A stretch of DNA of 64,000 nt from an uncultured delta proteobacterium (GCA_963771175.1 CAVYSY010000039.1:1-64000), one strand, 5' to 3'. Counted from the first letter of the stretch, positions 10,138 through 33,960 are shown. Made by a program: numbers and translations. The notes: generated by a model from the letters alone, not told the origin.

Positions 10138-11135
10138 GCACCGTGGAGGCACTCCTCGCCCCCGCCGACGCCCTGCGCGCGAGGCTGTACCGCCTCGCCG
10201 CTCCGTGGGCCGCACCGCTCTTCGCCGATCGTGAACGGCGCGTGGCGTGGCTCGGCGTGGCCGGAGTGACCTTCTCGTTCCTGCTCACCCTCTCCGTGCC
10301 GCTCTGGAGCCTCGCGCTCGGCCCCGTGCTGCTCGGCGTGCCGCACCTCGTCTCGGATCTGCGCTACCTCGTCGTGCGCCCCGGGTTGCATCGCCGCACC
10401 GGTCTGGCCGTGCTCGGCGGCATGCCGCTCCTGGCCACCTGTGTCGGCGCCGGCCCGGCGGTGGGCCTGCTCGCGATGGTGCCGGCCACCCTGGGCGCGC
10501 ACGGTTCGTGGTGGCGCAAGGCAGGGGTGCTCTCGGGGTGGGCCGCTCTCACCGTGCTCGCCCTGCGCTTTCCCCTGGGCAGCCAGCTCGCCCTGCTCCA
10601 CGGACACAATGTGTTGGCGGTGGCGCTGTGGTGGTGGGCCTGGCGGTCGAGACACTCGCGCGCCTGGGGCGTGCCGCTGCTCGCCGTCGGGGGGACGCTG
10701 GCCCTGCTGCTCGGCGTGGCCGAGCCCGTGATGACGGCGCTCGGTGCCTGGACGGCCCCGGCGACGGGCACGTCCTTCGGTGAGTTCGTGGAGCAGTTGT
10801 CTCCGCTGGAGGGCCACCCGGTGCTGGCGCTTCGGCTGGTGCTGACCTTCGCCTTCCTCCAGTCGGTGCACTACGGCGTGTGGTTGCGCCTCGTCCCGGA
10901 GGAGGCTCGGACGCGCGCGGCACCGAGGCCCTGGCGGGCGACATGGCGAGCGCTGGTGGAGGACTTCGGGGCGCCAACGCTCGTGCTCTTCCTGGTGCTC
11001 GCGCTCGCCGTGGCCGTCTCGGGGCTGGTGGACCTCCGGGAGGCGCGGCTGGGCTACCTCCAGATCGCGGTGTTCCACGGATACCTCGAACTCGCCGTCG
11101 CGGCGCTCTGGCTCGTCGAGGGCCGGCGGACATGA
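10134..11135 (+). CDS. Polytopic membrane protein with conserved-looking His motifs
   Basis: Multiple hydrophobic helices with GVPHL, LLHGHN, SVHYGVWL and FHGYLE. GTGA overlap with the upstream gene. Confidence 0.75.
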   Translation: MSTVEALLAPADALRARLYRLAAPWAAPLFADRERRVAWLGVAGVTFSFLLTLSVPLWSLALGPVLLGVPHLVSDLRYLVVRPGLHRRTGLAVLGGMPLLATCVGAGPAVGLLAMVPATLGAHGSWWRKAGVLSGWAALTVLALRFPLGSQLALLHGHNVLAVALWWWAWRSRHSRAWGVPLLAVGGTLALLLGVAEPVMTALGAWTAPATGTSFGEFVEQLSPLEGHPVLALRLVLTFAFLQSVHYGVWLRLVPEEARTRAAPRPWRATWRALVEDFGAPTLVLFLVLALAVAVSGLVDLREARLGYLQIAVFHGYLELAVAALWLVEGRRT

Positions 11136-11452
11136 CGCGGTGGCTCGCCGCCTTCGTGCTGACGCAGGTCCTCGAGGTGCCCCTCTACCTGCGTGCCGGC
11201 GCGAGCTGGCGCACCGCCTTGCTGGCCAGCACCCTGACCCATCCGGTGGTGTGGTTCGGCTTCCCCCTTCTGGGCCGATGGGGTCTCGGCTACTGGGGCA
11301 TGGTGGCCGCGGCGGAGACCTTCGCGGTAGGGGTCGAGGCGCTCTGGCTCTCCGCCCACGGGGTGCGGCGCGCATTCGCGTGGAGCCTGCTGGCCAATGC
11401 GACGAGCGTCGTCGGTGGCCTGCTGATCCGCTCCCTGTTCGGCTGGCCCTGA
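11132..11452 (+). CDS. Small membrane protein
   Basis: MTRWLAAFVLTQVLEVPLY...LTHPVVW...AETFAVGVEA...ANATS. ATGA overlap with the upstream gene. Confidence 0.7.
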   Translation: MTRWLAAFVLTQVLEVPLYLRAGASWRTALLASTLTHPVVWFGFPLLGRWGLGYWGMVAAAETFAVGVEALWLSAHGVRRAFAWSLLANATSVVGGLLIRSLFGWP

Positions 11453-11534
11453 GCCCAGGGGGCGGAAGGATAGATGTCCAAGTTCGGACGTTTCCATGGG
11501 AAGATGGGGCTCCCGCCTTCCGTACGCCCCCCGA

Positions 11535-12155
11535 ATGGATACGCCAGGTAGATCCGGCCCACCCCAGCCGCCGCTCGGCTCCGATGAGGAGCTGAAACAG
11601 CGACAGTCGCTCATCGCGCCAACGCACACCATGCGCGGGCTCTTCTTCAATTCCGTGCTGGAGGTGGTGCGGAGCCTGGGAGATGAGACCGCCGTGCAGC
11701 GCTGTCTGGCGGCCAGCGGGGAGACGAAGTTCCAGGATCTCGCCAGCTACCCCACCAGCACGTTCCTCCGGATGCTCTACACGGCGGGCAACCTCCTGAG
11801 CTCCAGGTTCGGCGGCTTCGAGGGGGCCCTGCGGCCGCTGGGCTCCCGGACGATGATGAAGTTCCTCGCCTCCGCCGCGGGCAAGGCCCTGCAAGGGGTG
11901 GCCGAGGACGACCCGCAACGGCTGATCGCCAACATCCCGCTGGTCCACAGGATGGTGTTGATGGGGGGAGACTGCACGGTGAAGTCGATGGGCTCGAACC
12001 GCAGTCTCCTCGTCATCGAGCGCATCTCCACCCCCGCGGCCTTCATCGAGGGCGCGCTGCAGATGACCCTCGAGGCCGCGAGGGTGCGAGGCGTGCGGGT
12101 GACCTCCCGACAGACGGGGACCCTGGACGCCGAGTTCGAGGTGTCCTGGACGTAG
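11535..12155 (+). CDS. DUF2378 / TIGR02265 myxococcal family protein
   Basis: TMRGLFFNSVL, SYPTSTF, FLASAAGK and EFEVSW signatures. Confidence 0.8.
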   Translation: MDTPGRSGPPQPPLGSDEELKQRQSLIAPTHTMRGLFFNSVLEVVRSLGDETAVQRCLAASGETKFQDLASYPTSTFLRMLYTAGNLLSSRFGGFEGALRPLGSRTMMKFLASAAGKALQGVAEDDPQRLIANIPLVHRMVLMGGDCTVKSMGSNRSLLVIERISTPAAFIEGALQMTLEAARVRGVRVTSRQTGTLDAEFEVSWT

Positions 12156-12170
12156 GTCTCGGGGAGCGGG

Positions 12171-14481
12171 TCAGCCGCCGAGCACGGTCGCGAGCGCCCG
12201 GTACTCGGGTCGCAACATCCGCTCGGCCTCGCTGCCGGCCACGACCACCGGGAGCATCGCATCCTCCAGCCCGGCCTCGGCCGCGAGCCTCACGGCGATG
12301 GGGGCCATCACCGTCGCCTCGATGAGCCGCTTCAACGGCCGGGCACCCAGCTTCGGATCGTAGCCGTGGCGGGCGAGCCAGGCGCGCGCCTCCGGCTCCA
12401 CCACCAGCCGCAGCCTGCGCCTCAGGAGCCCCGCTCGCGAGGCCGCCTTCTCCAGCTCCAGGTCGACGATCCGCAGCACGTCCGACTCCTTCAGGCGCCG
12501 GAACGGGATGACGTGGTCGATGCGGTTGAACAGCTCCGGCCGGAACGCCTGCCGGATGGCGCGCAGGAAGTCCTCCGCGCCGCGCTCGGCCCCGAAGCCC
12601 GCCGGCTCCGACTGCTCGACGCCGAGGTTGCTCGTCATGCAGACCACCGTCATCCGGAAGTCCACCAGCCGCCCGAGGCTGTCGGTGAGTCTCCCCTCCC
12701 CCAGGATGCCGAGCAGCAGATCGAAGACGTCCGGGTGGGCCTTCTCGATCTCATCGAAGAGGACGAGGGACATCGGCTGCTGCCGCACCCGCTCGGCGAG
12801 GCTGGTGATGCCGGGGCCCACCTCCATCAACCGCTGCGCGGAGCCGGGCAGCATGTACTCGGACATGTCGAGCCGGACCATCCGGTCCTCGTTGCCGAAG
12901 AGCGTGCGCGCGAGCTGCTTGGACAGCTCGGTCTTCCCCACGCCGGTGGGCCCGGCGAAGAGCAGCGTGCCCACCGGCTTCTCCGGATCATTGAGGCCGG
13001 CCTTGAACCGCGCGAGCACGCCCGCGGCCTGCTCGCAGGCCCGGTCCTGCCCGATGACGCCCTGCTTCAGGTGCGCCGCGAGCGTGGCCTGCTCGGCGGG
13101 GATCTCATCGCTGATGAGCTGGAGCGGCAGCCCGGTGTAGCGCGCGTAGGCCTCGGAGACGTCGCGTGGGTAGAGCGTTCGGGTCCTGCCGCGCTCGCCC
13201 TGCTGGTCGAGCCAGTCGAGGAACCGGTACGCCTTCCCCGGGAACAGGCTGTCGCGCTGGAACATCTCCAGGTGCCCGACGAGCTGCCGCAGGCCCAGGG
13301 GGTGGATGCTCACCCGGCTGCGCTTCGCCGACTGGTAGCGCTGCATCAACTCCGGCACCAGCGAGGCCGGGGGCGCCTCGATGCGGATGATGCGGAAGGG
13401 GCGCAGGGCCTCCGGGAAGCGCCGCTGGCAGCGCTCCAGCTCGGCCTCGGTGCACTCGGCGATGAGGGAGAGCTCCTCGCTCATCGCGGCCGGGAGGAGC
13501 AGATCTCCAATCGACGAGCCGTCCGGCTGCGGCGCCAGGAGCGAGGTGAGGCGGTCGACGTAGAGGTAGTCGTTCTCGAACGAGAGCGCGTCGATGATCT
13601 TCAGGCAGCGCTCCTGCCACATGCCCAGGTACACCATCCCGGCCACGATGCGCTCGGCACTGGTGCGCCAGATCTTCGGGAAGTGAGCCTTCTTGTCGTC
13701 CTTCGCCTCGCGCCGCCGTTCCGCGATCAGCCGCGCGAGCTGTAGCACCCAGCTCGTCTTGCCGACGCCCGGTCCCCCCACGAGGAGGAGCGACACCGGC
13801 GGCCGGTGCAGCACGTAGGAGAGGAAGGCCCCCAGGGTATGCCCGTCGTAGACCAGGGCCGGCTGCCGTGCGCCCAGCGCGCGCGAGGTCAGCTCCTCGC
13901 CGATCTGATCGAGCACCGGGGGCGGAGGCTCCTCGTGGTCGCCGCGCCGGGCGTCCCGCACCAGCTCGCCGGGGTCCCAGCTCCGGACGAACTCCTCGCC
14001 CTCGTGGCGGAAGTCGTAGAGCCCCTTGGGCTTCTCGCCGAGCAGCGCGGTGGTGAGCGCGTTCTGCAGCACCTCGCGCGCGATGGAGAGCTCCTCGATC
14101 ACGAACGACCAGCCGAAGCGAGGCACCCGCCACGCGCCAGGTGCCGCTCTCCATCTTCCCGTAGACGTACGTCAGCTTCAGCGGGACGAGCGCCTTGGCG
14201 ATCACCGGCCGCTTCTTGTGCACGGTCTGCGGATGCACCTCCACGGTGATCGTCCGCGCCTGCAGGGACTCCTCCCACAGGAAGCGCTCCAGCGAGGCGG
14301 CCTCGTCGAGCTGCATCTGCCGCACCTGCATCTCCAGCAGGGCGTAGACCTCGGCCTCGCTGGCGCCGTAGGCGGACGGTGGCGGGTCATCGAAGAAGCT
14401 GTCCCACACCGGGAGCAACTGCCCGGTCAGCCGGCCGTCGTGGTGGGTGGTGAAGTAGACGCGAAGGCTCTTGTCATTCAT
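12171..14481 (-). CDS. ClpA/B-like double-AAA+ protein #3, frameshift near 14135
   Basis: Start MNDKSLRVYF at 14481 (ATGA overlap). D1 GGPGVGKT and IVAGMVYLGMWQER. D2 GPTGVGKT, DMSEY, DEIEKAH, TSNLG, RPELFNRID and GARPLKR. Confidence 0.85.
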
Positions 14482-17400
14482 GGGTTCTGGCTCATCCGCA
14501 ACCGCCACAGGCTCGGCAGGGCCTCCCCGGGAGACCGGACCCGGTGGCTGCCGCTGTAGGTGAGCAGGTAGTCGTCGAGCTCCAGCACCGACACCTCGCC
14601 CGGACGGGAGGGCGGCTCGAAGCGATAGGCGCGGACCACCGGAGCGGCCGCCTCGGGATCCTCCGGCAACGGGCTCACGCCCGACTGGCGCGCCTCGTGG
14701 AAGGCCCGGAGCTTCGCGGCGTGCAGCTCGAGCAGCCTCGCCGGCTCGGGCGCGCTCGTCTCGTGGACGCGGACCTTCACCACCTCCGGGAGCCGACCCG
14801 AGGACTGCCAGACGTGCAGCCCACCCTCCCCCTCGAAGAAGGGACGCACGCCCGGACCCACCAACTTGATCGCGACGTGGACCGGCTCCAGTGGCGAGCC
14901 GTGGAAGTCCTGGAGCTGCCGGGGACCACCGGACACCACGGCGCCTCCGGGGAGATGGGCGGCGAAGCTCTCCACCTCGCCTCGTGCGCCGGCATAGGCC
15001 TCGCAGAGCCACGCCGTGAGCAGGGAGCCTGCGGCCGCGCCGTGCCGCCACTGCCCGAGCGGGAGCAGCTCCAGCGTCACCACGTGCTGATCCGGGCTGG
15101 AGAGCTCGCGCAGGACACGCTGCAGGAAGTAGACCTCCGCCAGCGCGTCGAGCATCTGCTCGCGGGAGACCGCCTTCACCGGCTCGAGGGCCCGCCGGGC
15201 GAAGAGCCGGATGCGCTGGCCCTCCCCATCTCCGCTGGCCGAGGAGCGGCGCTCCACCACCCCGAAGCGGTCGACCTCGATCATCTCCCGCGCCGCCTCC
15301 TCGGGAGCCCGCGCGAGGGACTCCAGCCGCGCCGCGAAGTCCTCCAGGTACAGCCGCATCGCGTCGAGCGTGTAGAGCGATCCGGCGTGCTCGCGCTCAC
15401 CCGCCTGGAGCCGCTCGAGGTGGAAGCGGACCTGCTCGGACAGCGTGCCGAGCGCGTGGCTGTGCCGCATCCGCTGCACCTCCTCGCGCGCCTCCAGTGC
15501 CTTCTCTCTCAGCCGGGCCACGGGCAGCGCCAGGAGCGGCTCGAGCGCGAAGCCCTCGGTGGCCGGCTCGCGGGACACGAGCGCGTCGGCCTGCACCTCG
15601 AAGCGGCCCTCGCGGGTGTAGAGCTGGAACAGCCGCAGCAACGACTGGGGCCCGCGGATGATGGCCTCGGAGAGGGCCTGACCGACCTTCTCCTCCAGGT
15701 AGCGCTTCAGCGGACGCGCGCCCAGTTGGGCGTCGAAGGCCTCCTCGACGATGCGGCGCTTCACCGCCTCGTCGGCGGACACGAAGATGTTGCGCGACGT
15801 CAACCCGTGCCGCGACAGCAGCCGCGCGAGCTCCTTCTCCACCACCTTCTCCCCCGACTCCCGGGAGAGCGGCGAGAAGTGCACGATGTGGTCGATGCGG
15901 TTGAAGAGCTCGGGCGGGAAGAACTCGCGCACCGCCCGGTCCGCGTCGAGCGCCAGGGCCCGGGCGTCCGGAGGGCCGAGGCTCACCGTTGGCTTCTGGC
16001 GGGCCCCGAGGTTGCTCGTCATCACGATGACGGTGTGCGTGAAGTCCGCCGTCTCGCCCGAGGCGTCGGTCAGCCGGCCCTCGTCGAACGTCTGGAGCAG
16101 CAGGTTGAGCAGCGCCGGGTGGGCCTTCTCGATCTCATCGAGCAGCACGAGCGAGAAGGGCTGCTCGCGGATGAGGCGCGTCAGGCGGCCCTCGGGTTGC
16201 CAGGCATCACCGGTGAGCCGCGCGACGGCGTCCGGCGTCTGGAACTCGGCCATGTCGAGCCGCACCATGCGGGACGCATCGCCGTACAGGTAGCCGGCCA
16301 GTGCGCGGGCGAGCTCCGTCTTGCCCGTGCCCGTGGGGCCGGTGAAGAGGTAGACGCCGTAGGGCCGGCGCGGATCCGTCAGCCCGGAGTGGATGCGCGC
16401 GATGAGATCGCACGCCACCTCCACCGCCGCCGGCTGGCCCATCACCTTGCGCGAGAGGGCCGCGTGCACGTCGGCCGGCTCCAGCTTCTTGTGGGGGTGG
16501 AGCAGGAAGTCCGGCAGGCCCGTCCTGCGCGAGAGGTGCTCGAAGAGCATCCCGACGTCGATATCCAGCCCCTTGCCCCCGTAATCGGCGGCCAGCTCAC
16601 GCAGCAGATCCAGCGCCTTGCCCGGCAGCGCGGCGCCCGAGAAGAGCGAGCTGGCCTGTTCGAGCAGGGCCGGGAAGAGCGGCGGAGACCAGCTGACCCG
16701 GTGTCGGCCCTCCAGCTCCCGCGCCTCGTGCAGCAACATCCGCAGCGTCTCGTCGGCGCTGGTGGGCCTCACGTGGAGCTGGGTGAAGAGGGCGGCGAAG
16801 GACGGTGCATCGGACTCGAGCCGCTGGAGCTGCTCCGGCGTCACCGTGCCGACGAGGGAGATCTCCCCGCGCGCGAGCGCCCCCTGGAAGAAGAGCGCGA
16901 GGTTGGCGTCACTGTCGCGCGAGCGGCCGATGCGGCCGAAGGCATGCAGGTCCTCGACGAGGAGGATGCGCCGCCCTCCCCTCGAGTCCTCGAGCAGCTT
17001 CAGGCAGCGCTGCTCCCAGTCGCCCACGTAGCTCATGCCGGCGATGATCCGCTTGCCGGCGATCGACCAGACCTCGGTCACCTTGTCCAGGTTGCGGTGG
17101 GTCTGGAAGCCCTCGGCCTCGAGCTGCTCGGCCACGAAGCGCTTGAGCAGGGTCCGCTTGCCGGAGCCGGGAGCACCGACGAGCAGCACCGGTGTGCGCC
17201 GCTCCCCACCGAGCAGGAGCTGGAGCTGCTCGCGATAGGGACTGCGTGGCATGCCAGTGTCGAGCGTGCCCTCCGCCGCCTGGAGGGTGAGGTTCGTCCC
17301 GAGGTTCTGCAGCACCTGGGTGCCCGCGCGCGGCTTCTGCTGCTTCTTGCCGTGCTTGTCCTTGAGCTCCAGGTCGTCCCAGGGGCCCTTCTTCTTCCCA

Positions 17401-17930
17401 AGCTCATCGAGCAGCGAGCGGGGCTGGGCCACGAACGCGAGCGCCTTGAGGCTGTCCTTGCCGTTGGAGCGCAGCTCCTCGAGCTGGTGCAGCTCCAGCG
17501 CGGCCCAGGCGCGGGTGAAGAAGAGCTTCGCCTGCTCCTCCAGGCTGGCCGAGGGATCGATCGGGAACCACTCGTCCTGGCGCAGGGGGTGGTAGGCGAT
17601 GGTCATCTCCTCGCCACGCGTGCGCCAGCGCGGCTCGAGGATCAGCGGGAAGACGCCGGACAGGCGCCGCGTCTCGGCCCCGGCACGCACGCGCTTGAAG
17701 TCGAGCTCCAGCCGCACCCGCTGCAGGTAGAGGCCGCGCGGGAGCTGGAAGTACGCCAGCTCCCGGACCGGCAGCTCGCCGATGATGCTCCGCAGGTCGT
17801 CCACGAGCTTGCGCTGCAGCTTGACCGTGCTCCGGCCCTCTCGGCTGCGGGTATGGGGGCCGAGCCCGATCGTGGTCCAGCGGAAGCCGGAGGAGTCCCG
17901 GCTCTGGTAGACGGCGAGGGTGAGGTTCAT
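14478..17930 (-). CDS. ClpA/B-like double-AAA+ protein #2 with C-terminal release-factor-like domain
   Basis: 1150 aa. D1 GAPGSGKR, D2 GPTGTGKT/DEIEKAH/GARPLKR. C-terminus has IKLVGPGVRPFFEGEGGLH and VVRAYRF. Confidence 0.85.
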   Translation of the reverse strand: MNLTLAVYQSRDSSGFRWTTIGLGPHTRSREGRSTVKLQRKLVDDLRSIIGELPVRELAYFQLPRGLYLQRVRLELDFKRVRAGAETRRLSGVFPLILEPRWRTRGEEMTIAYHPLRQDEWFPIDPSASLEEQAKLFFTRAWAALELHQLEELRSNGKDSLKALAFVAQPRSLLDELGKKKGPWDDLELKDKHGKKQQKPRAGTQVLQNLGTNLTLQAAEGTLDTGMPRSPYREQLQLLLGGERRTPVLLVGAPGSGKRTLLKRFVAEQLEAEGFQTHRNLDKVTEVWSIAGKRIIAGMSYVGDWEQRCLKLLEDSRGGRRILLVEDLHAFGRIGRSRDSDANLALFFQGALARGEISLVGTVTPEQLQRLESDAPSFAALFTQLHVRPTSADETLRMLLHEARELEGRHRVSWSPPLFPALLEQASSLFSGAALPGKALDLLRELAADYGGKGLDIDVGMLFEHLSRRTGLPDFLLHPHKKLEPADVHAALSRKVMGQPAAVEVACDLIARIHSGLTDPRRPYGVYLFTGPTGTGKTELARALAGYLYGDASRMVRLDMAEFQTPDAVARLTGDAWQPEGRLTRLIREQPFSLVLLDEIEKAHPALLNLLLQTFDEGRLTDASGETADFTHTVIVMTSNLGARQKPTVSLGPPDARALALDADRAVREFFPPELFNRIDHIVHFSPLSRESGEKVVEKELARLLSRHGLTSRNIFVSADEAVKRRIVEEAFDAQLGARPLKRYLEEKVGQALSEAIIRGPQSLLRLFQLYTREGRFEVQADALVSREPATEGFALEPLLALPVARLREKALEAREEVQRMRHSHALGTLSEQVRFHLERLQAGEREHAGSLYTLDAMRLYLEDFAARLESLARAPEEAAREMIEVDRFGVVERRSSASGDGEGQRIRLFARRALEPVKAVSREQMLDALAEVYFLQRVLRELSSPDQHVVTLELLPLGQWRHGAAAGSLLTAWLCEAYAGARGEVESFAAHLPGGAVVSGGPRQLQDFHGSPLEPVHVAIKLVGPGVRPFFEGEGGLHVWQSSGRLPEVVKVRVHETSAPEPARLLELHAAKLRAFHEARQSGVSPLPEDPEAAAPVVRAYRFEPPSRPGEVSVLELDDYLLTYSGSHRVRSPGEALPSLWRLRMSQNP

Positions 17931-20900
17931 CGCTTCACCCCCTGGAGCTTGTCGAGCGCGAAGGAGAAGGTGCCCTCACGATCGAGCCCATCGAGGAGCT
18001 CGAGCACGGAGAGGTGTTCGAGCAGGACCCGCTCGAGGTTCCGGAAGTAGTCCGGAGTGGCGAGCGTCAGCTTGCGATCGCCCTCGAACAGGGAGAGCAC
18101 ATCATCGGGGAGGTGCTCGCGCACGGGTGGCACCAGCCGGAGCTCATGGGGGACCTGCGGCGCCGGGGGCGCGATGGCTGGCAACTCGAGCTCCTTCTCG
18201 TACAGGTGGGTCCGCATCGCCACGGGCAGGACCGTGAGCAGGACTGGCTCGTCCTTCTCCAGCGGGGGGTAGCGGTGCAGTCCGGCCTCGAGCGCGAGGA
18301 AGGCCCCGGCGTTCAACCCCGCGACCGACAGCAGCACCTCGCGAAAGGCACGGGAGGGCTCGACGAGCGCCTTCCTCAGCTCCTCGGCGTTGAGGACCGC
18401 GCCCCACTTGCGCTTGCGGTCGCTGCTCTTGCTGGTCACCGACGGGCGTCCCCCGATCGACCACCCGCGCCGGGGCGCGTCCGCGAGCAACGGCAGCAGG
18501 TAGCGTTCGAGGGCGCGCCCGTCCTTGGACTCCTGGAGGATCAGCGTGATGGCGTCCCGGCGGGGCAGCAGCGCGAGCAGCATCGAGGGCATCAGCTGAC
18601 GGAGGCCCCGGAGCTGCTCTCGGGCGTCCTCCACGAAGGGGCCGGCGTCCTGCTGCTCGAAGAGGGCCATGAGTGCCAGCTCCTCGGCGGCCACCAATGC
18701 CGCGCGCAACCGCTGCGCCTGCGTCCAGATCCCATTGAGTCGGTGGTGCGACTCCTGGAGCTTCGCCACCGAGGAGGCCTCGGGGCCCCGCTTCTCCTCC
18801 CGGTCCCCCTGGGAGAGCTGGGCCACCAGGAAGCCGAGCTCCTCCTTGAGCTGCTCCACCGCGTCGAGCTGGAAGAGCGAGTCCATGGCCCGCCGCTCCG
18901 CCTGCAGCTCGCGCACGAGGCCAAGCTGGTTCCGCGCCGACCTCGGGCTCCCCTTGTGCAGCTCCACCGCGATCCCCTCCGGGCGCGGAGCGATGACCAC
19001 GCGACCGCCCTGGGCATCCGGTCCCGACGAGGAGAGCGCGCGGGCGATGGGGACGACGAGCTGCTGGTCCAGGTGCCTGCGCATGGCTCGGGCGCCATAG
19101 GCCTCCTGGTAGCCCGACGTGGCGAGCGTGGTGGTGATCTCCGGCGGCACGTGGAGCGAGATGCCTCGCTGGAGCAACCCGCGCCGCAGCCGCAGTTTGT
19201 CCACACCGAGCCTCGCCACCTCCGCCGCCTGCTCGGACGTGAGCGGGTGGAAGGGAATGAGCTGATCGATGCGGTTGATGAACTCGGGCCGGAAGCTCCG
19301 GTGCACCTCACGCAGGTAGTACGAGCTGTCGTCCACCGCGGTCGCGCCGATGCCCAGCGTATTGCGCCGGTGGGCCGCCCCGAGGTTGCTGGTCATGATG
19401 ATGATCGCGTTGTGGAACCAGGCCGTCTGCCCGCGAGCATCCGTGAGCCGCCCTTCCCCGCAGACCTGCAGGAGCAGATCGAAGACGGCCGGGTGGGCCT
19501 TCTCGATCTCATCGAGCAGCAGCACGCAGAAGGGCTGCTGGCGGACCCGCCGCGTGAGGTGGCCCTCGCCCTGGGTGTTGCCCCGGATGAGCCGGTCGGC
19601 GGCCCAGGCGTCCATGTACTCGCTCATGTCGAAGCGGAACATCCGCTCCGCCGAGCCGAACAGGAACGTGGCGAGCAGCCGCGCGAGCTCCGTCTTCCCG
19701 ACGCCGGTGGGGCCCACGAAGAGGAAGGTGGCCAGTGGCTTGCCCTGCGGCTGCAGGCCCGCCTTGACCATGCACAGCGTCTCCACGACGCGGCGCACCG
19801 CCGTCTCCTGGCCGATGAGCTGGCGGCGGAACCACGCCTCGAGCTCGGGCGCCAGCAGCGCGCGATCCTCGCGAAGGAGGAACTCGGGGACGCCGGTCTT
19901 GAGGCTGAAGAGCGAGTACACCCGCTCCCGGGTGAGCTCGGGCACCTGACCGCTGGCGGTGCGCTCCTGCTGCAGGCCCGCGCGCATCTCCTCATAGAGA
20001 CGCACCGCCTTGCCGGGTAGCGCGCGGCCCGGGAGGTAGCGCTCGGCCAGCTCCACGAGCGGCTCCACCGCGGCATCGGCCAGCGTGGGCCGGGAGGCGT
20101 CCGCCTTTCGCTGCCAGGCCGCCCGTGCCCGCAGGGCCTCGCGGGTGTGCTTCGCCCCCAGCGGCTCCAGGCGCACGCACGAGAGGGTGGCGAAGAGGCC
20201 CGGCTGCCGGCTCTCCAGTAGATCCAGCGAGTCGGGGGTGAGCTCGCCGAGGAACCGCACCTTGCCCTCCTCCAGGAAGGGCTTCATCGCGCCGGGGATG
20301 TCGATGGACTCGGAGGAGTGCTGCGCGAGCAGCTCGCCGAGGTTCTCGAAATAGAGGACGGCATCGAGGTCCTGCGCCGCGCGCATCACGCGCAGCACGC
20401 GCTCCTGCCACTGGCCGAAGCCGGACATGCCCGCGAGCAGCCGCGAGCCGCTCGTCGCGTACACCCGCCGCTGGCGGCCGGCCTTCCGCTCAGCGCGCAG
20501 CCACGCGTGGAGCAGCTCCGTCTTGCCCGCCAGCTCCGGGCTGACGAGCAGGACTCCCTGTCGCTTCTCGCCGCCGAGCAGGCTCGACAGGAGCGCGAGC
20601 TCGGTGTCCCGGCCGACCAGCGGAGGCCCATGCCGGGCCTCCTCGCGCTCGTGGAGCTGCGTGGAGACGGTGAGGAGCACCTCGTGCGCCTGGTCTCGCT
20701 TGAGCTTCTCCTGCTGCTTCTTCTTCGCCTGCCGGGCCTTCTCGCTGAACACGTCCTGGCGCCTGAGCTGGAGCGGGACGGTCTCCAGCGTCACCGATCT
20801 TGGCGGCAGCAGCCGCAGGTACTCGTGGGCGGTGGGCTCGCGCGCGGCGAGCATCCGCTCCACGTCCGCGCGGACGATCTCCCGGACATCCTGGTTCCTG

Positions 20901-21277
20901 CCCACGTGGACGGTGTGGTCGATCGCGGGGACGAAGACCCACGTCTCCTCCGCCAGGGGCACGACGACGGCGGTCATCTCCACGGTGGTGGGCTTGACGA
21001 GGCGCTTGGGCAGATCGGCGCGCGGCGCGAGGATCTCCAGCGTCTCCAACCGGACCTGCTCCGGCAGGGAGAAGCGGGCGAGGACCTCGGGCTCCGCCTT
21101 GGAGAGGTACTCCTCGAGGAACAGGCGCTGCTCGGCGAGGCAGGCCTCCCGGGTGGCCGCGTGGCTCGTCAGGGCCGGCGCGGCCACGGGAAACGCCTGG
21201 TGGTCCCCGCTCCAGAGCTGGAGACAGAGGAGTGGCGTGGAGAACTCGAGGATCCCTGGCGCGTGGGTGGGGGCCAT
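17927..21277 (-). CDS. ClpA/B-like double-AAA+ protein #1 with C-terminal release-factor-like domain
   Basis: 1116 aa. D1 SPELAGKT, D2 GPTGVGKT/DEIEKAH/RPEFINRID. C-terminus has RRGWSI...EVLLSVAGLNAGAFLALEAGLHRY. Confidence 0.85.
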   Translation of the reverse strand: MAPTHAPGILEFSTPLLCLQLWSGDHQAFPVAAPALTSHAATREACLAEQRLFLEEYLSKAEPEVLARFSLPEQVRLETLEILAPRADLPKRLVKPTTVEMTAVVVPLAEETWVFVPAIDHTVHVGRNQDVREIVRADVERMLAAREPTAHEYLRLLPPRSVTLETVPLQLRRQDVFSEKARQAKKKQQEKLKRDQAHEVLLTVSTQLHEREEARHGPPLVGRDTELALLSSLLGGEKRQGVLLVSPELAGKTELLHAWLRAERKAGRQRRVYATSGSRLLAGMSGFGQWQERVLRVMRAAQDLDAVLYFENLGELLAQHSSESIDIPGAMKPFLEEGKVRFLGELTPDSLDLLESRQPGLFATLSCVRLEPLGAKHTREALRARAAWQRKADASRPTLADAAVEPLVELAERYLPGRALPGKAVRLYEEMRAGLQQERTASGQVPELTRERVYSLFSLKTGVPEFLLREDRALLAPELEAWFRRQLIGQETAVRRVVETLCMVKAGLQPQGKPLATFLFVGPTGVGKTELARLLATFLFGSAERMFRFDMSEYMDAWAADRLIRGNTQGEGHLTRRVRQQPFCVLLLDEIEKAHPAVFDLLLQVCGEGRLTDARGQTAWFHNAIIIMTSNLGAAHRRNTLGIGATAVDDSSYYLREVHRSFRPEFINRIDQLIPFHPLTSEQAAEVARLGVDKLRLRRGLLQRGISLHVPPEITTTLATSGYQEAYGARAMRRHLDQQLVVPIARALSSSGPDAQGGRVVIAPRPEGIAVELHKGSPRSARNQLGLVRELQAERRAMDSLFQLDAVEQLKEELGFLVAQLSQGDREEKRGPEASSVAKLQESHHRLNGIWTQAQRLRAALVAAEELALMALFEQQDAGPFVEDAREQLRGLRQLMPSMLLALLPRRDAITLILQESKDGRALERYLLPLLADAPRRGWSIGGRPSVTSKSSDRKRKWGAVLNAEELRKALVEPSRAFREVLLSVAGLNAGAFLALEAGLHRYPPLEKDEPVLLTVLPVAMRTHLYEKELELPAIAPPAPQVPHELRLVPPVREHLPDDVLSLFEGDRKLTLATPDYFRNLERVLLEHLSVLELLDGLDREGTFSFALDKLQGVKR

Positions 21278-21372
21278 TCACCCGGCATCCTATGCCGCCG
21301 TACCTGAAGAGTGGACAGGGCATCGATCGCACGCGTGATGAGGTACGCTGGCCGCAGGAGGCGTACCTCATC

Positions 21373-22434
21373 ATGCCGCACGAGAACCCGAGCATCTTCC
21401 AGTCCGCGATCGACCGGCGCCTGCGTGACGCACTGCTCGCCGACAGGAATGCCCAGCGAATCGGCACCCTCGCGAGGCGGAGGCGACTGCTGACGGACGC
21501 GCTCCGGCTGACGCGCTCGGTGGCTCCGGCGGTCGTGGATGCGCTGGCCGCCTGTCGGGAGACCCTGGGCCACGAGGGTCCCGTGGAGCTGTTCGTCCAG
21601 CCGGATCCGAGGTTCCACGCCGCGGCGGTACGGGCCCCCGGAGAACCTCCCGCCATCGTCCTCGCCTCCCGGCTCATCGAGACGCTCACCGAGGCCGAGC
21701 TGCGCTTCGTCATCGGCCACGAGCTCGGCCATATCCTCGAGCACCTCGCCCTCCCCCTTCCGGTCGGCGTCGAGGACCTGGAGGCAAGGCCCCTCCCGCG
21801 CGCCACCGTTCTCGCGATGGATGCCTGGAACCGGGCGGCGGAGGTCAGCGCCGATCGGGCGGGGCTGCTGTGCGCCAAGGATACCGAGGCCGCCGTGAGT
21901 GCCTCGTTCAAGCGGGCCAGCGGCTTGTCCTCCGCGTCCGTGAAGTCCGAGCTGGCCGCCTACACGCGCCAGGTGGACGCGCTGCTGTCCTCGCCCGCGG
22001 CCCGAGAGAAGCCGCGCGAGGACGATGACACGCTCGGCTGCTTCATCACCCACGCCTTCAGCCCCCTGCGCATGCGTGCCCTCGTGGCGTTCTCCCGGTC
22101 GAGGACCTTCCTCCGGGTGGCGGGGCACTACGCCAGCGAGGAGGGCCGTCCGGAAGAAGAGATCGACGCGCTCATCGCGCGGGACTTCCGGGAGTTGGAG
22201 CCCTCGGGTCTGGCGGAGAAGCTCCCGTCGGGAGACATGCTCGCCCGGCTGTGTCAGGAGACGTCCCTCTCGGAGCGGGCCCGGTTGGTGCGGCACCTCA
22301 CCCTGGTGGCGGCCGCGGAAGGCCCGGTGAGCGACGCGTGGTTCCTGGAGTTGCGACAGGTGGCCGAGGCGCTCGCCATCCCCCTGTGGCTCATTGACGA
22401 GGCGCTTCGCGGCGCCACCTACCCGATGGATTGA
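21373..22434 (+). CDS. M48-family zinc metallopeptidase with C-terminal TerB-like region
   Basis: AGGAGG RBS before the ATG at 21373. ELRFVIGHELGH, RAAEVSADRAG and THAFSPLR motifs. C-terminal LVAAAEGPVSDA...LRQVAEALAI is TerB-like. Confidence 0.75.
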   Translation: MPHENPSIFQSAIDRRLRDALLADRNAQRIGTLARRRRLLTDALRLTRSVAPAVVDALAACRETLGHEGPVELFVQPDPRFHAAAVRAPGEPPAIVLASRLIETLTEAELRFVIGHELGHILEHLALPLPVGVEDLEARPLPRATVLAMDAWNRAAEVSADRAGLLCAKDTEAAVSASFKRASGLSSASVKSELAAYTRQVDALLSSPAAREKPREDDDTLGCFITHAFSPLRMRALVAFSRSRTFLRVAGHYASEEGRPEEEIDALIARDFRELEPSGLAEKLPSGDMLARLCQETSLSERARLVRHLTLVAAAEGPVSDAWFLELRQVAEALAIPLWLIDEALRGATYPMD

Positions 22435-25400
22435 TGATGCCTTCCCAGAGCGGTCCGATCGCGATCGTCGCCTCCGCGTGCCGATTGCCGGATGCCGCCA
22501 CGCCCGAAGCCTTCTGGAACAATCTGATCGCGGAGCGCATCTCGATGCGCTCGCCCCCCGAGGGCCGCTGGCCGGATCACCCGGACGCACGGGTCGGGTC
22601 GTTTCTCGATGATGTGCGTGGGTTCGACGCGGCGTTCTTCGGAATGAAGGGCGGCGAGGCCGAGTTCACGGACCCACAGCAGCGGCTGCTCCTGGAGACC
22701 GCGCATGAGGCGCTGGAGCGCGCCGGGTTCGCGGGCCCCCGCCGGCGCAACCGGCGCACCGGTGTCTTCGTGGGCGTCGGTCAGTCTGATTACCAGGAGG
22801 GGATCCTCCGGCTCCTATGGGCGGGCGTGCCCGTGCACCCCAGCGCGGCGGTGGGGAACCTGCGGAACCTCATCCCCTCCCGCGTCTCGCACGTCCTGGA
22901 CCTGTCCGGCCCCTCGCTGGCCATCGACACCGCGTGCTCGTCATCGCTGGTCGCCCTGCACCTCGCCTGTGAAAGCTTGAACCGCGGCGAGTGCGAGCTC
23001 GCGCTGGCCGGGGGCATCACGCTGAACCTCACCCCCACCGTGTTCACCGTCCTCTCGCGCGCCGGGGCGCTGTCCCCCTCCGGCAGCATCCGCCCGTTCG
23101 CTCGGGATGCGGACGGCATCGTGCTCGGAGAAGGTCTGGGTGTGGTCGTCCTGGAGCGGCTCGATGACGCGCTCCGGCGGCACGCTCCCATCCTGGCGGT
23201 GGTGCGCGGAAGCGCGCTCAACAATGACGGTCGCACCTTCAACCCGATGGCTCCCAATCCCGCCCGGCAGATCGCGGTGATGCGGGAGGCGTGGCAACGG
23301 GCCGGGCTCGACCCGGCGAGCGCGAGCTACCTCGAGGCGCACGGAACCGGCACCCGTGTCGGGGACTCGATCGAGGCGCGCTCGGTGTCGGCGGTCTTCG
23401 GAAGGCCGGGCACGAACGAGCCGCTCGGGATGGGCTCGGTGAAGGGCAACGTCGGGCATCTCCTGAGCGCCGCCGGAATGGCCAGCCTGCTCAAGGTCGT
23501 GTCCGCGCTCCAGCACCGCACGCTCCCGGCCTCGGTGCATGCCGGCTCGGCGGCGCCGGAGCACGGACTCACATCGGCCGGCATCGCCCTGGTGGACTCG
23601 CCGCGTCCGTGGAGCGGGCCGGAGCCCCTGCGCGCCGGCATCAACGGCTTCGGGTTTGGCGGAACCAACGCCCACGTCATCCTGGAAGAGCCACCCGAGC
23701 GCCCTCCCCGCCCGCGCTCCCCCGGCACGCGCCCCCTGCTGTGGATGGTGTCCGCTCGGACCGACACGGCGCTCCGAACCACCGCGCGGAACCTCGCGTC
23801 CTGGCTCCGGGAGAATCCGGAGGTGGATCTCTCGGACGCCGCCCTGTCCGCGAGTGTCTCGCGAGATCCGGGCCCCCATCGGCTCGCACTCGTCGGGGCG
23901 GAACGGGTTCCGGAACGGCTCGAGACCTGGGCGGCTGGAACACCCGCCGAGGTCCTCCACGGCGTGGTCCCCGACCGCGTGGCGAGGAGGAAGGCGCGCA
24001 ACGGAGCCTCGTTGGAGGGGGCCTCGGCGGAGGTCGCCGCGAGCGCGTTCGTCGAAGGAGAGGCGTTCGACCGGCTCGCGTGGGACGAGGAGCCGGACCG
24101 CGAGCACGTGCCGGTGCCCACCTACCCCTTCGAGCATCGGCCGTGGTGGGTGCCCGATGCGCCCCCGGCCACGGCCTCGGCGTCGCGGCGGATCGAACAT
24201 CCGCTTCTGGTGGACGAGCTCGAGCTCACGATGGACCGGGCGGTGCTCCTCGCGCGCATCGTGCCCGACGACCCGCTCGTCTCCGAACACGTCGTACATG
24301 GAGTGCACCTCCTCCCGGGCGCCGCGTGCATCGAACTGATGCGTGCGGCGGCACGGCACGCACTGGGCACGGAGCCCGCGGGCCTCGCGGAGGTCACGTT
24401 CGCGCGGCCCGTCCGGGTGGACGACGAGGCCTGTACGGTGCGCGTCGGGGTCGAGCGTCGGGGTGATGACCTCGAGGTCTCCTTGTCGGACGAGGACGGC
24501 GGTGTGCTCGCTCGGGCGAAGGTGCTCCGCACGAAGCGGGCGCCGGCAACGGCACCGGGGAGCGATGAGCCTCGCACGCGTGGGTTCGAGCCCTCCGCCC
24601 TATACGAGGGACTCCGCGAGCGAGGGATGGACCACGGGGCTTCACTGCGCGCCGTCCGGGCCATCGAGCTGGGCGAGCGGACCGCGCGCGCGGAGCTCTC
24701 CCTGCCAGAAGAGGCACGGGGTCGAGCGTTCGGCGTGCATCCCGCGCTGCTCGATTCCGCCATGCAGCCGATCGCGGCACTCCTGCTGGCCCACACCCGT
24801 GAGCGGGAGGGCCTGTACGTGCCGATGCATGTGGAGCAGGTCGAGCTGCTCGGCCCCATCCCCGACCGCTGCGCGGCGCTGGTGACGCTGAACGGAGATC
24901 CGCGGGCACCGGGCGATGTCGTGCAGTGCGAGGTGGAGATTCGCGTCGGGAACGAACCGAGGCTGCGCCTTCGCGGGCTGCGCCTTCGCCGCGTCACGGC
25001 CGAGGCACTCCAGGGCACCGAGCGCGATGTCCGGGCCTGGATGCGCGAGGTGGTCTGGCGGGAGGCTCCCCCGGAGCAGTCCCAGCCTCCCCGGGGACGT
25101 TGGGTCGTCGTGCCCGCGGCACATCCGGCGAGCCCCCAGGTCGCCCGCCGCCTGCGCGACGCGGGAGCGACATGTGAGCGCGTGGACCCGTCGGAGCTGA
25201 AGGCGGCGCTCGCCCGGGGTGAGACCGAAGGGGTCGTGTTCCTCGGCCCGACGGGGAAAGCGACCCAGCCCCCGGATGTGGCCTCGTTCGATCAGGCCCA
25301 GCGGGACGGAGCCCTGGCGCTGCTCGCGGTCGCCAGAACCTGTGATGCGCTCGACCGGGATCGACGTCCCGCGCGCCTGCTCGTGGTGACCGCCGGCGCG

Positions 25401-28400
25401 ACGGATGGCCGTGCTCCCGAGCGCGCGACGGTGGTGGGGCTGGGGCACGCGTTGGAGGACGAGCTTCCCGGAAGCCGGTGCCGTGTCGTGGATGTCGATG
25501 TCACCGCATCCGAGGAGTCCCTCGCGGACGTGGTGCTGACCGAGTCCTCGTGCGTGGCGCCGGAGTCGGACCGGGTCATCCGGTGGAGGCAGGGGCTCCG
25601 CGAGCGCCGGACGGTCGAGCCCATCGCGCATGCCGGGGAGCGAGCGCACGAACCGCGCGAGAATGGCGTGTATCTCGTCACGGGAGGAGCCGAGGGGCTC
25701 GGCCACGCGGTGGCACAGCGGCTCGCCCGGGCGGGTCGCACGCTCGTCCTGGTGGGTAGGAAGCCGCTGGAGCAGGCACCGGAACGGGCCGCGCGCATCG
25801 AAGCGCTGCGTGCGAGCGGCGCGGCAGTCACGTACATCGCCTGCGACGTCGCCGATCCGGATGGGGTCGCGGGGCTCATCGCGCGGATCGTGCTCGACCA
25901 CGGTGCGCTCCATGGAGTGGTGCACGCGGCCGGCGTGGCTTCGCCGGGTCGCATCGGAGGGCGGGAGGACGCGGCGTTCGCGCGGGTGCTCGGGCCCAAG
26001 GTGCGGGGCACGTGGCTCCTCTGGCGGGAGCTCGAGCGCAGGCGCATCCGGCCCGACTTCTTCGCGCTCTTCTCGTCCATGTCGGCGAGCTGGCCGGGGC
26101 TGGGCGGAGGACTGGGAGACTACGTCGCCGCGAACGCGTACCTGGATGCCTTCGCCCTGGCGCGTCGGGCGGAAGACCTGCCGTTCACGTCCGTGGCGTG
26201 GTCCGTGTGGAGCGAGACTGGCATGGGGGCCGAACCCACGCTGGTCCGCGCCATGGAAGCGCGCGGGCTTCCGGCGATCCCCACGCGACAGGGCGTGGAC
26301 GCGTTCCTCCGCGTGCTCGAGCTCGGCCGTGCGCACGTGGTGGTCGCGCCCGTGGGGCCTCGCGCGGCCACGTCCGTTGCAACCACCACCGTGTCGCGGC
26401 CACCTCCGGCCATGACGTCCGTGGTGGAGGAACTGCGTGCGCTCGTGGCGAAGGCGCTCGACGTGGACCCGGGCGAGGTCGCGACGGATCGCTCGTTCCT
26501 GGCCATGGGGCTGGACTCACTGAACGCGCTGGATCTGGCCAAGGGCCTCTCGGACCGCTACCGCGTCGAGCTCCCGCCCACCCTGTTCTTCGAGCAGCCC
26601 ACGATCGACGCACTCGCGGAGTATCTCCGGAAGGCGAAGGGAGATGCGGCCCCTCCCTCCACTCCGGCGCACGTCGCCGCGACCGAAGCTCCGCTCTCGC
26701 CCGTGCAGAAGGCGTTCTGGGTCCAGCAGCGGCTGCATCCGGATGTTCCCGTGTTCTCGTTCGTCCGGCAGACGGTTCGAGGGCGGCTCTCGGTGGACGC
26801 ACTCCGGAAGGCGGCGGGCGCGGTGGCGCGACGCCATCCCCTGCTCCGCGCCTCGGTGGCGGTCACGACCCAGGGCGAGCCGGTGCAACGGATCTCCGAG
26901 GCCGTGGAGGCCCGGATCATCGACCACGGTGAAGTCGTGGACGTGGAAGCCCTCGCCGATGGCATCGTCAACACGCCATTCGAGCTCTCCCGTCCGCCCC
27001 TGTGGCGCGTGGACGTGGCCCGCGACGCGGCGGCGGATGCGACACACGTGCTCCTGTGCGCGCACCACCTGATCGCGGACGCCTGGAGCCTGCAGGTGCT
27101 CGCCACCGATCTCTGGCGGGCGTACGCGGCCGCCGCTTCGGGCCACGCGCTTCCCGACTGGCCGGAGGCCCCCGGCTTCTTCGACGCGCTCGACGTCCGT
27201 CGGCCGAGGCTCGATGCGGATCTCGCGTGGTGGCGTGAGCGCCTCGCGGAGGCACCCGCCCTGCGCCTGCCGTTCGACGGGGATCCGCTCGCGCCACCCG
27301 AGCCGCCAATCTTGTCCGTCCTCCGCCGGCTGGGTCCGGAGCAGACGCGGGCCTTCGTGGCTACAGCCGCCGCGGCGGACGTCTCCGTGTTCCACCTGTC
27401 GCTGGCCGTTCACGCCCGGTGCCTCGCGCGGTGGTCCGGTGCGGACGAGGTCATCGTGAACGTGGCCCGGGCCCGCCGTGAGCTGCGCGTTCCGGGAATC
27501 GAGCAGGTGGTGGGCTGCTTCGCGGACACGCTGCCGCTGCGCATCCGGCTGGAGCCCGGGGAGTCGCTGGCCCTGCTCGCGAAGCGCGCACGCGACGCAC
27601 TCCTGGAGCTGGAGCGGCACGCCTCGCCGACCTCGATCGAGATCGCACGGGTGCTGCCCGGGGACGTGGGCTCACCTCGGGTCGCGAGCGCCACGAGCTA
27701 CAGCTACGCGCGCTTCCCGCTCTCCCTCCCGCCCGAGCTCCCCGAGCTGCTCGCCCTCGCGGGCCGGACGGCGACTCCCGCCACCCGGCTCGGACTGGCG
27801 GTGTGGGAGTTCCAAGGGGCGCTGTGCTTCGCATGGAGCTTCCCAGAGCGCGTCCTTCGGAAGGACACCGTCGAGAGGTTCGCGGACGAGCACCTGCGCG
27901 CCCATGTCGATGCCGGCTCCACCGCACAGGCCCCGTCGGTCCCCGAGCGGATCTTCACTCGCCTCCAGGAGACACCGGAGCGCGTGGCGCTGCGGGAAGG
28001 CGATCGGAGCCTCACGCGCGGCGAGCTGGACCAACGATCCGCCCGTGTGGCCGCTGCGCTCGCCGAGCGCGGTATCGGCCCCGGATCGGTGGTGGCCCTC
28101 CTGTCGGACCAGAACGCGGAGGGCATCACCGGGCTGCTCGGCATCCTGAGGACGGGGGCGGCCTGGCTGCCGCTCGATCCGGAACACCCACCGGCGCGGC
28201 TTCTCCTGCAGCTCGAGCGTGCCGGTGCCCGGGTCTGCCTCTACGCGGGAGGTGCCGCGAGCACCGCGGCCGGGCTGACCGGGACGGTCACGACGCTCGC
28301 GATCGAGCAACAGGTGGAGCCCGGAGCAATCGCTCCACCGGTGCGAGTCGGAGACGAGGCCCTCGCGTACATCATCTTCACCTCCGGTTCCACGGGTCGG

Positions 28401-32186: not shown

Positions 32187-32191
32187 CCGCC

Positions 32192-32224
32192 AAAAGAAAA
32201 ACGGGAGCGTCTCCGCTCCCGTTT
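32192..32224 (-). terminator. Rho-independent terminator between convergent genes
   Basis: Hairpin AAACGGGAGCG-TCTC-CGCTCCCGTTT (32199-32224), followed by a T-rich tract on the minus strand. May be bidirectional. Confidence 0.75.
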
Positions 32225-32247
32225 CCCTCACCCAGCTATTTCGAGAA

Positions 32248-33357: not shown

Positions 33358-33689
33358 GTCGCGGACTTCCTTTGCTGGGGGGACCGGCGATTCGGCTCGT
33401 TCCCGGGCGATGCCGTCCGGGCACGAACTGACCATCAGCAAGACTCAGGCCAGTTGCCGGCTTTCGAGGAAATGCGGAGTTACGAGACGCCCCACCCGCT
33501 CCGGGGAGCATCGAGGCTCCACCACCGGGACGCCGGAATGTAAAGAGTCGACACGGTCGTTGGGCCATTCCTCAGTAAAATCAAGGACATTGGCTGATGC
33601 ACGAAACCGTCCGAAAACAGGACAGCGACTGTCCTCATTGAGGTCACCCAGCCCATGGTGGCGCAGAGCCTCGGGAAGGGGCACGCCCC

Positions 33690-33960
33690 AAACAAACACA
33701 TATCAATTCACATGTCGTTTGATTATCTTGATATTAATTGCCATTGCCATTGTCATTGCATCATACACAACACACAATTGCTACCAAGAACAAGGAGGAT
33801 AATCACAAGCAACGCAAAATGACGAGCGATTGACTAAGCAAGACAAAACACATATCAACCAACAGCAACTACGGCAAGCCGGACAAAAGCAAACACAATC
33901 AAACACAAAGCCGTGTCAATTGCTCTCGCAGCTACAAAGACAAACAATACGCCAACGTGA
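33690..33960. promoter_or_regulatory. AT-rich intergenic tract with repeated AAACACA(T)ATCAA motifs
   Basis: Exact 13-mer AAACACATATCAA at 33694 and 33846, a variant at 33891-33910, and tandem ATTGCC/ATTGTC at about 33737-33760. Confidence 0.45.

Follow-up and report, generated by a model that had tools for sequence, protein, structure and literature searches.

Release factor-like tails on Clp/Hsp100-related ATPases of an uncultured delta proteobacterium

Three consecutive minus-strand genes, termed A1, A2 and A3, encode Clp/Hsp100-like ATPases within a 64,000-nucleotide stretch of DNA from an uncultured delta proteobacterium (GCA_963771175.1 CAVYSY010000039.1:1-64000; hereafter the window, from whose first letter all positions are counted). 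The last ~340 residues of A1 are very probably homologous to the core of the class-I peptide chain release factors (RFs) and represent a diverged RF body, and modelling together with profile comparison points to a second, more diverged RF-like tail on A2. An earlier note on this DNA, made from the sequence alone, had placed an RF-like domain without GGQ at the end of A1, and the motif strings it relied upon were located where it had put them, in the last 211 residues of the protein (DAITLILQ from residue 908, E-A-G-L-H-R at residues 997-1002 and V-R-E at residues 1051-1053). The three genes are as follows.

17927..21277, minus strand: AAA+ #1 (A1), 1116 amino acids by open reading frame (ORF) and translation, with an N-terminal domain without recognisable relatives, a degenerate first ATPase module (D1), an active-looking second module (D2) and the RF-like tail
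14478..17930, minus strand: AAA+ #2 (A2), 1150 amino acids, the last 385 of which (14481-15635) form the second RF-like tail
12171..14481 (upper end approximate), minus strand: AAA+ #3 (A3), a paralogue without an RF-like tail, frame broken near 14127

Third-position G+C in the three genes is 0.94-0.96 (0.94 in A1), the window as a whole being ~70% G+C, and the nearest relatives of the window genes are from Archangium, Hyalangium, Vitiosangium and Cystobacter. The A1 stop and A2 start overlap in ATGA, the true A3 start (ATG at 14481) overlaps the A2 stop in the same way, and A1, A2 and A3 are translationally coupled ClpA/ClpC-type paralogues joined by these overlaps. All three were Clp/Hsp100-like by Pfam and NCBIfam, with scores far under the ClpA and ClpB equivalog cut-offs.

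Homology of the A1 tail to class-I release factors

Searches with the A1 sequence by itself returned little. The Pfam family PCRF (PF03462) scored 13.3 bits on the 357-residue A1 tail alone (E 0.072), under the gathering cut-off of 24 bits, a 257-residue version of the tail had no Pfam match, and phmmer with the single tail returned no match from the PDB. An exhaustive phmmer search with the 357-residue tail over 1.84 billion cluster representatives yielded 155 proteins at E<=1e-3. With few exceptions these were either proteins of 1100-1200 amino acids matched at the C-terminus or short pieces of proteins of this kind. From tail-only fragments a 23-sequence tail alignment was built, and its profile, compared with 177,635 PDB sequences at E<=10, gave 24 matches consisting of 22 RF1/RF2 entries and two coiled-coil proteins, with E. 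coli RF2 the best match (1gqe_A, E 0.0021). When aligned by hhalign to the single sequence of E. coli RF1, the 23-sequence profile gave E 2.3e-4 and a profile of 141 A1-family tails gave E 5.7e-5 with a probability of 66%, both alignments being colinear over RF1 residues ~7-216.

An AlphaFold model of the A1 tail, calculated on the alignment, had a predicted local distance difference test score (pLDDT) of 90.0 and a predicted template modelling score (pTM) of 0.87. Foldseek comparison of this model with the PDB gave 35 matches at E<=1e-3, every one of them RF1, RF2 or mtRF1 (best 1.1e-7). PrfH (9mor_A and 7sa4_8) was among the weaker matches, and unrelated folds appeared only from E ~0.02, at a probability of 0.08. 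Because the PDB profile search, hhalign and the AlphaFold/Foldseek comparison agree, and return almost only RFs, the A1 tail is considered RF-homologous. The match to RF domain 2/4 proposed in the earlier note is therefore borne out by profile and structure searches, with the qualification that the Pfam comparison it had also suggested stays below the cut-off. PCRF was matched by six of the 23 tail fragments (best E 2.3e-4), and identity of the A1 tail to RFs is 10-19%.

Elements of the release factor body retained in A1

The tail could be divided into the following elements.

18578..18946, minus strand: RF domain-1-like four-helix region, residues 778-900 (profile and model)
18218..18568, minus strand: RF domain-2-like alpha/beta region, residues 904-1020 (profile, model, Foldseek and hhalign)
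18353..18436, minus strand: basic insertion of ~27 residues, consensus W-P-x-x-R-R-W-G-P-P-R, reading S-S-D-R-K-R-K-W-G-A in A1
18272..18289, minus strand: E-A-G-L-H-R motif, residues 997-1002, aligning to E-S/T-G-V-H-R of RF1/RF2 (E-x-G-x-H-R)
18131..18217, minus strand: linker of ~29 residues in place of the GGQ-bearing RF domain 3 (model and tail alignment)
17930..18130, minus strand: predicted RF domain-4-like strands (V-R-E-H...) and C-terminal helices (model and conserved R294)

Positions 12-141 of the A1-tail profile align to RF2 residues 31-163, which constitute RF domain 1, and the AlphaFold model places four helices in this region (H19-43, H46-65, H75-114 and H120-141). The extent of the likeness is thus greater than the earlier note had proposed: domains 2 and 4 stand, and the preceding helical segment, which it had set apart, is RF domain 1, so that the RF likeness starts ~130 residues upstream of the stretch it described, at about window position 18946. 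Domain 1 includes E106, part of a family-specific E-E-L motif and present in 100% of the 141 tails, and two tryptophans are also among the most conserved tail positions; we know of neither the E-E-L motif nor these tryptophans in RFs.

In the domain-2 region, the strand-helix-strand unit of A1 (D-A-I-T-L-I-L-Q-E ... R-R-G-W-S-I) aligns to L-D-I-Q-A-G ... S-R-G-F-K-T of RF2, and V-L-L-S-V-A-G-L-N-A-G-A-F-L-A-L-E-A-G-L-H-R lies within the same RF2-aligned unit. Conservation of the E-x-G-x-H-R motif is high among the 141 tails (E238 96%, G240 99% and H242 89%). After the linker, the sequence V-R-E-H-L-P ... Y-F-R-N-L-E-R-V-L-L-E-H-L stands in place of RF domain 4, with V-R-E at window positions 18119-18127, and was modelled as three strands (E292-297, E301-304 and E309-312) followed by a helix (H319-337). 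R294 of V-R-E is conserved in 95% of the 141 tails. The pairing of V-R-E-H with the I-R-T-Y of RFs rests on the predicted fold and on conservation of R294, as no significant sequence alignment was obtained for it (second hhalign alignment, probability 0.3%).

Elements lost and added in A1

The catalytic GGQ domain is absent from the A1 tail, as had been claimed. Between H-R and V-R-E there are 51 residues in the 141 tails (range 44-63), compared with 124 in E. coli RF1, and the linker was modelled with only two one-turn helices. Four of the 141 tails contain the string GGQ, each at a different, unrelated position outside the linker, and neither A1 nor any of the other members scanned (23 + 42) had a match to the Pfam family RF-1 (PF00472). 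The loop that follows H-R is shortened, reading P-P-L-E-K-D-E-P in A1 and gapped against V-P-A/V-T-E of RF1. Profile, hhalign and tail alignment agree with the note that the PxT/SPF motif is missing from this loop in A1; a P.T/SPF pattern is found in 16 of the 141 tails, without a fixed position. A further change is at the start of the RF domain-2 helix, where G-G-x-E is replaced by D/K-x-x-R-A-L in the tails. In RFs, the G-G-x-E helix tip is the reader of the first stop-codon base.

The basic insertion is followed by a short helix and fills the hairpin that spans residues 164-169 of RF2, which holds residue 167. It occupies 33 profile positions against RF2 164-169 and corresponds to a gap in RF1 in both hhalign alignments, and two of its residues are well conserved in the 141 tails (R197 80% and W199 85%). 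The RF2 change E167K, in the same hairpin, alters codon reading; the mutant is named in the title of PDB entry 8p16, a Foldseek match to both the A1 and A2 tails.

With domain 3 and its GGQ, PxT/SPF and the helix-tip motif all lost, the tail is incapable of peptide release and of stop-codon reading, and because the elements that read stop codons are not conserved, any docking on ribosomes would be independent of a stop codon. Three defining RF features, namely the GGQ domain, the tripeptide anticodon and a PCRF score above the Pfam cut-off, fail in A1, and the tail is therefore not an RF but an RF-derived domain.

A second release factor-like tail on A2

The earlier note had described the RF-like tail as a trait of A1; this holds, but the trait is not limited to A1. 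A BLASTP comparison of the two tails gave nothing significant, and they are linked by profiles alone: hhalign of the profile of 141 A1 tails against that of 42 A2 tails gave E 2.8e-5 at a probability of 74%, with the match in the domain-2 core, pairing V-G-P-G-V-R-P-F-F-E-G-E-G-G-L-H-V-W of A2 with A-G-L-N-A-G-A-F-L-A-L-E-A-G-L-H-R-Y of A1. The model of the A2 tail (pLDDT 77.7, pTM 0.76) gave 36 Foldseek matches at E<=1e-3, and all 32 among those listed were RF1, RF2 or mtRF1. No GGQ is present in any of the 42 A2 tails. The PDB profile search made with the A2 alignment was dominated by the ATPase part, contributed by three full-length rows, and is uninformative on the A2 tail. By its predicted fold and the A1-A2 profile match, the A2 tail is a second, more diverged RF-like tail.

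Two further features of the A2 tail were observed. In the model, a long extra helix (H298-317) takes the place of domain 3, and the motif V-V-R-A-Y-R-F is reminiscent of I-R-T-Y-N-F of RFs.

Distribution of the family

A genome scan with the A1 tail gave 19 loci, all from Archangiaceae. A1 is followed by A2 in each of the 18 loci that extend past the A1 end, and the 16 loci that extend far enough all hold the full A1-A2-A3 triad. Among close relatives, A1 tails are 58-84% identical compared with 72-93% for the whole protein. The source names of distant members, with tail identities of 33-37%, are Sorangium, Byssovorax, Minicystis and Labilithrix, and every named family member is from Myxococcota. 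An A1-like and an A2-like protein, probably encoded on one 15,289-base contig, suggest that the pair is also present in a distant lineage.

A minority of members carry a ribosomal L7/L12-type C-terminal domain after the RF-like tail (5/23, best E 3.2e-7; 3/42; and 8/140, the last count made by motif). The L7/L12-type segment A-I-K-x-Y-R-x-x-T-G-x-G-L-x-E-A-K is found in P0056, P0067, P0076 and P0117 and in five fragments of the A1 alignment. A1 of the window is without this domain, which is the only RF-independent support for a link between the family and translation.

ATPase cores and N-terminal domains

The remainder of A1 consists of two ATPase modules preceded by an N-terminal domain.

19943..20632, minus strand: D1 ATPase module of A1, Walker B F-E-N instead of D-E, pore loop aromatic G-F-G-Q-W (ClpB/ClpA alignment)
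19022..19741, minus strand: D2 ATPase module and small domain of A1, canonical Walker A and B, GYVG pore loop deleted, L-G-I at the ClpP-loop position
20633..21277, minus strand: N-terminal domain of A1, ~215 amino acids, no recognisable relatives

Pfam identified two AAA+ modules with ClpB_D2-small in A1 (AAA_2 1.7e-42, ClpB_D2-small 1.4e-10 and AAA_lid_9 4.5e-5), and the alignment to ClpA covers residues 179-761. Scores against the NCBIfam models were 310 bits for ClpA (cut-off 993) and 295 bits for ClpB (cut-off 1232). Alignment to E. coli ClpB and ClpA, together with Pfam, indicated that the ClpB middle domain and Clp_N are both missing from A1, A2 and A3. The ATPase part is related to Clp/Hsp100 but is not an orthologue of ClpA, ClpB, ClpC or ClpV.

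The Walker B motif of D1 is non-canonical in all three proteins (F-E-N in A1, V-E-D in A2 and V-D-R in A3), and D-E was found at this position in none of the 83 A1-family and 41 A2-family members in which it could be resolved. Walker A and B of D2 are canonical in A1, A2 and A3. The first ATPase ring is degenerate and the second looks active. The segment of ten residues that remains of the D2 pore loop contains an aromatic residue in all 39 A2-family members compared and in only 7 of 100 A1-family members, and the ATPase parts of the three paralogues are degenerate in complementary fashion. ClpP-docking loops read I-G-L, I-G-F or V-G-F. At the position of this loop, I-G-L in ClpA, 96 of 106 A1-family members (scored as [LIVMA]-G-[FLIM] after TSNLG) and 38 of 41 A2-family members have a hydrophobic-G-hydrophobic tripeptide; in the window, A1 reads L-G-I and A3 reads A-G-F.

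A1 and A2 (17256-17930) share an N-terminal domain of ~200 residues (L-A-R/Y-F-x-L-P ... V-R-L-E), of which A3 has a shorter version. Searches with this domain gave no Pfam family for the window copy, no consistent Pfam family and no usable Atlas match, and a 10-sequence profile gave a single PDB match at E 0.68.

Genomic neighbourhood

The reading frame of A3 shifts by one base within window positions 14120-14140, at a G run (G-C-G-G-G-T-G-C-C), such that the first 117 codons from the ATG at 14481 are out of frame with the 651-residue core. In 16 of 16 related loci the N-terminal piece and the core share one frame; the A3 match in locus L009 is likewise split in two, with different frames judging by coordinates. 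The break in the window is either a sequencing error at the homopolymer or a genuine inactivating mutation.

21232..22434, plus strand: M48-type zinc peptidase, transcribed divergently from A1 (Pfam Peptidase_M48 2.2e-11), an inconstant neighbour

As listed, the ORF of this peptidase and the A1 start share 46 bases, which means that one or both starts lie further in. It is found upstream in 10 of the 19 related loci, two of which have no upstream sequence. Beyond it, a hybrid polyketide synthase/non-ribosomal peptide synthetase of 3251 amino acids is encoded at 22431-32186 on the plus strand, with KS, DH, KR, carrier, adenylation and condensation domains. A tie between this gene and the ATPase operon was considered and rejected, since it is present in only one of the 19 related loci and is thus probably unrelated to the operon. 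G+C falls to 0.62 at 32001-34000, compared with ~0.71 elsewhere. This stretch encodes a lysine-specific metalloendopeptidase, Aspzincin_M35 (minus strand, 32248-33441), and may be acquired DNA.

Relation to known systems

RF1 and RF2, which contain PCRF and RF-1, are the sole significant structural neighbours of the tails, with which they have in common the order of domain 1 and domain 2/4 and the E-x-G-x-H-R motif. The tails differ in being without domain 3 and GGQ, PxT/SPF and the G-G-x-E tip, and in their 27-residue basic insertion; the A1 tail is moreover fused to an ATPase of ~760 residues and scores under the Pfam cut-off. To our knowledge, the known RF relatives either keep the GGQ domain and drop other parts, as do ArfB, ICT1 and PrfH, or lose motifs only, as does PrfB3.

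PrfB3 of land-plant chloroplasts is described, in the passages of PMC5897788 used here, as a paralogue of RF2 in which SPF and GGQ are missing and which binds RNA, in the 3' untranslated region of petB. Like the tails, it is an RF derivative from which both functional motifs have gone and which has a role outside termination, and by this analogy it is the nearest precedent in logic. It is unlike them in that it stands alone and, in those passages, has lost motifs with no domain loss stated; the likeness is one of description.

PrfH (RF-H), which takes part in RtcB-PrfH ribosome repair, is a paralogue of RFs with a specialised role and enters the A site in the absence of a normal stop codon. 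According to passages of PMC6514570, it is without domain 1 and keeps the catalytic domain, which makes it the reverse of the A1 tail on both counts. The same passages (Burroughs & Aravind 2019, PMC6514570) describe the bacterial catalytic domain as an insertion in the codon-recognition domain and name ArfB, PrfH, ICT1 and MRPS35 as variants that keep the catalytic domain. They bring up AAA+ proteins solely for Cdc48, in connection with Vms1/ANKZF1, an RF-family protein that acts with this AAA+ unfoldase on stalled ribosomal particles (PMC6514570). Vms1 differs from the tails in having the unrelated eRF1 fold, in being catalytically active and in recruiting Cdc48 as a separate protein, and the likeness is by analogy only. 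In the supplement of PMC6514570, all rows for Cystobacter, Archangium and Hyalangium found there, and two for Sorangium, are proteins of 144-173 amino acids. Neither a full-text literature search nor the passages drawn from PMC6514570 contained an ATPase-fused RF or one in which domains 1, 2 and 4 are retained and domain 3 is absent.

Among the Hsp100 proteins, ClpA and ClpC resemble A1 in having two AAA+ modules, ClpB_D2-small, no M-domain and a tripeptide at the ClpP-loop position. A1 differs from them in the absence of Clp_N, the degenerate D1 Walker B, the deletion of GYVG, the new N-terminal domain and the RF-like tail, and in that the operon holds three paralogues whose NCBIfam scores lie far under the cut-offs.

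Possible functions of the tails

The A1 and A2 tails descend from a bacterial class-I RF and have kept domain 1 and the domain 2/4 body. In true RFs the partners of domain 1 are RF3 and the ribosome's stalk side, and the decoding centre is occupied by the domain 2/4 body. The interpretation given in the earlier note is borne out in part: RF homology and loss of the GGQ domain hold, and docking on the ribosomal A site or an RNA target would follow from the homology. In the reading that is favoured here as a whole, with a probability of roughly 0.45, the RF-like tails would dock an ATPase ring on ribosomes. A1, A2 and A3 would form one mixed ring, and the tails would act as tRNA- or RF-shaped probes, docking the ring at the ribosomal factor-binding site and A site independently of the codon. 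The targets would probably be ribosomes with a vacant A-site codon, and the conserved basic insertion would sit in the path of the mRNA or at the 16S rRNA. Hydrolysis of ATP by D2 would then remodel the particle, either by splitting it or by removing a trapped factor or nascent chain, and because a ClpP-loop-like tripeptide is conserved, the ring may pass substrate to ClpP. A more specific form of this proposal, reached by analogy, is possible though on the doubtful side: the complex would be a covalent bacterial counterpart of Vms1-Cdc48, in which codon-blind, non-cutting A-site probes bring the mixed A1-A2-A3 ring, possibly coupled to ClpP, to ribosomes with an empty mRNA channel, whose vacancy the W-P-x-x-R-R-W-G-P-P-R insertion would sense. 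A vacant mRNA channel is sensed by ArfA and by the tail of SmpB.

Several observations weigh against docking on ribosomes, or against the RF assignment on which it builds. Foldseek TM-scores are low (0.2-0.46, with free RF1, 1rq0, at the top), owing to the missing domain 3 of ~100 residues and a different arrangement of domains. At E<=0.1, only three of the 42 full-length members matched PCRF, each under the cut-off, and the A2-tail profile is not significantly similar to RF1 by hhalign (probability 0.3%). Every stop-codon-reading element tested is missing from the A1 tail, and the fit to the decoding centre may therefore have been lost too. The tails attach at the D2 face, the side on which Clp machines have their exit and bind ClpP, and an adaptor that recruits substrate would be awkwardly placed there. 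The D2 pore loop is shortened and without GYVG in all three ATPases, making classical threading uncertain, and A2 of the window has no ClpP-like tripeptide (S-L-G-P). Finally, as all 19 loci are from Archangiaceae, the conserved synteny may be plain vertical inheritance.

The RF fold may instead have been reused away from ribosomes, as a regulatory or assembly domain that packs on the ring, for example in gating of the D2 face, or as an adaptor for protein substrates. The loss of all codon-reading motifs, the location of the tail at the D2 face and the presence of the family-specific E-E-L and two tryptophans among the most conserved positions are in keeping with such reuse. However, it would have to explain why the whole RF body, including domain 1, is kept in order in two otherwise very diverged paralogues and why an L7/L12-type domain was added in some members, and it is regarded as unlikely, though the main alternative. 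The conserved Arg/Trp-rich insertion in the domain-2 hairpin would also suit a tail that binds free RNA (mRNA, tRNA or small RNA) and brings the ATPase to a ribonucleoprotein, for which PrfB3, as described in part of PMC5897788, is a precedent. No Rfam family was found at gathering scores in window positions 11000-23000, and free RNA binding does not explain why domain 1, whose partners in true RFs are ribosome-bound, has been kept; this explanation is accordingly thought distinctly improbable.

A defensive role, in which the RF-like tails are baits that sense an attack on the translation apparatus, such as a toxin or phage factor acting on RFs or the A site, and switch on the ATPase complex, has little probability. 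The genes are lineage-restricted and exist as several paralogues, the tails evolve faster than the cores and the family is found in social, predatory bacteria, points that speak for baits. Against this, PADLOC returned only generic matches, the D2 core alone matching the DolB, PDC-M37B and mad8 models, no effector domain was identified next to the ATPases, and the synteny in the 19 Archangiaceae loci is stable and not that of a variable island. That the likeness to RFs is due to chance or to convergence of a common alpha/beta fold, as the low identity and the sub-threshold Pfam score might suggest, is hard to credit, given that three independent methods agree on almost nothing but RFs and that the alignment is colinear over ~210 residues and two domains, including E-x-G-x-H-R.

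Implications

In the family described here the catalytic domain itself has been excised from the codon-recognition domain, where every true RF carries it as an insertion, and the remainder has been fused twice to energy-driven remodelling machines. Should the tails act in the manner of Vms1-Cdc48, they would represent a route of ribosome rescue or dismantling that is new to bacteria, and the first case of an RF stop-codon-recognition domain that is free of the catalytic insertion. If the tails still reach the ribosome, the operon would encode an ATP-driven, ribosome-directed Clp machine of bacteria, whose parallel to Cdc48-dependent quality control is testable; if they do not, they would be a clean case of a translation-factor fold turned adaptor. 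The operon would also encode a natural Clp ring of three paralogues with a division of labour, in which one type of subunit has an aromatic residue in the D2 pore and the others are without.

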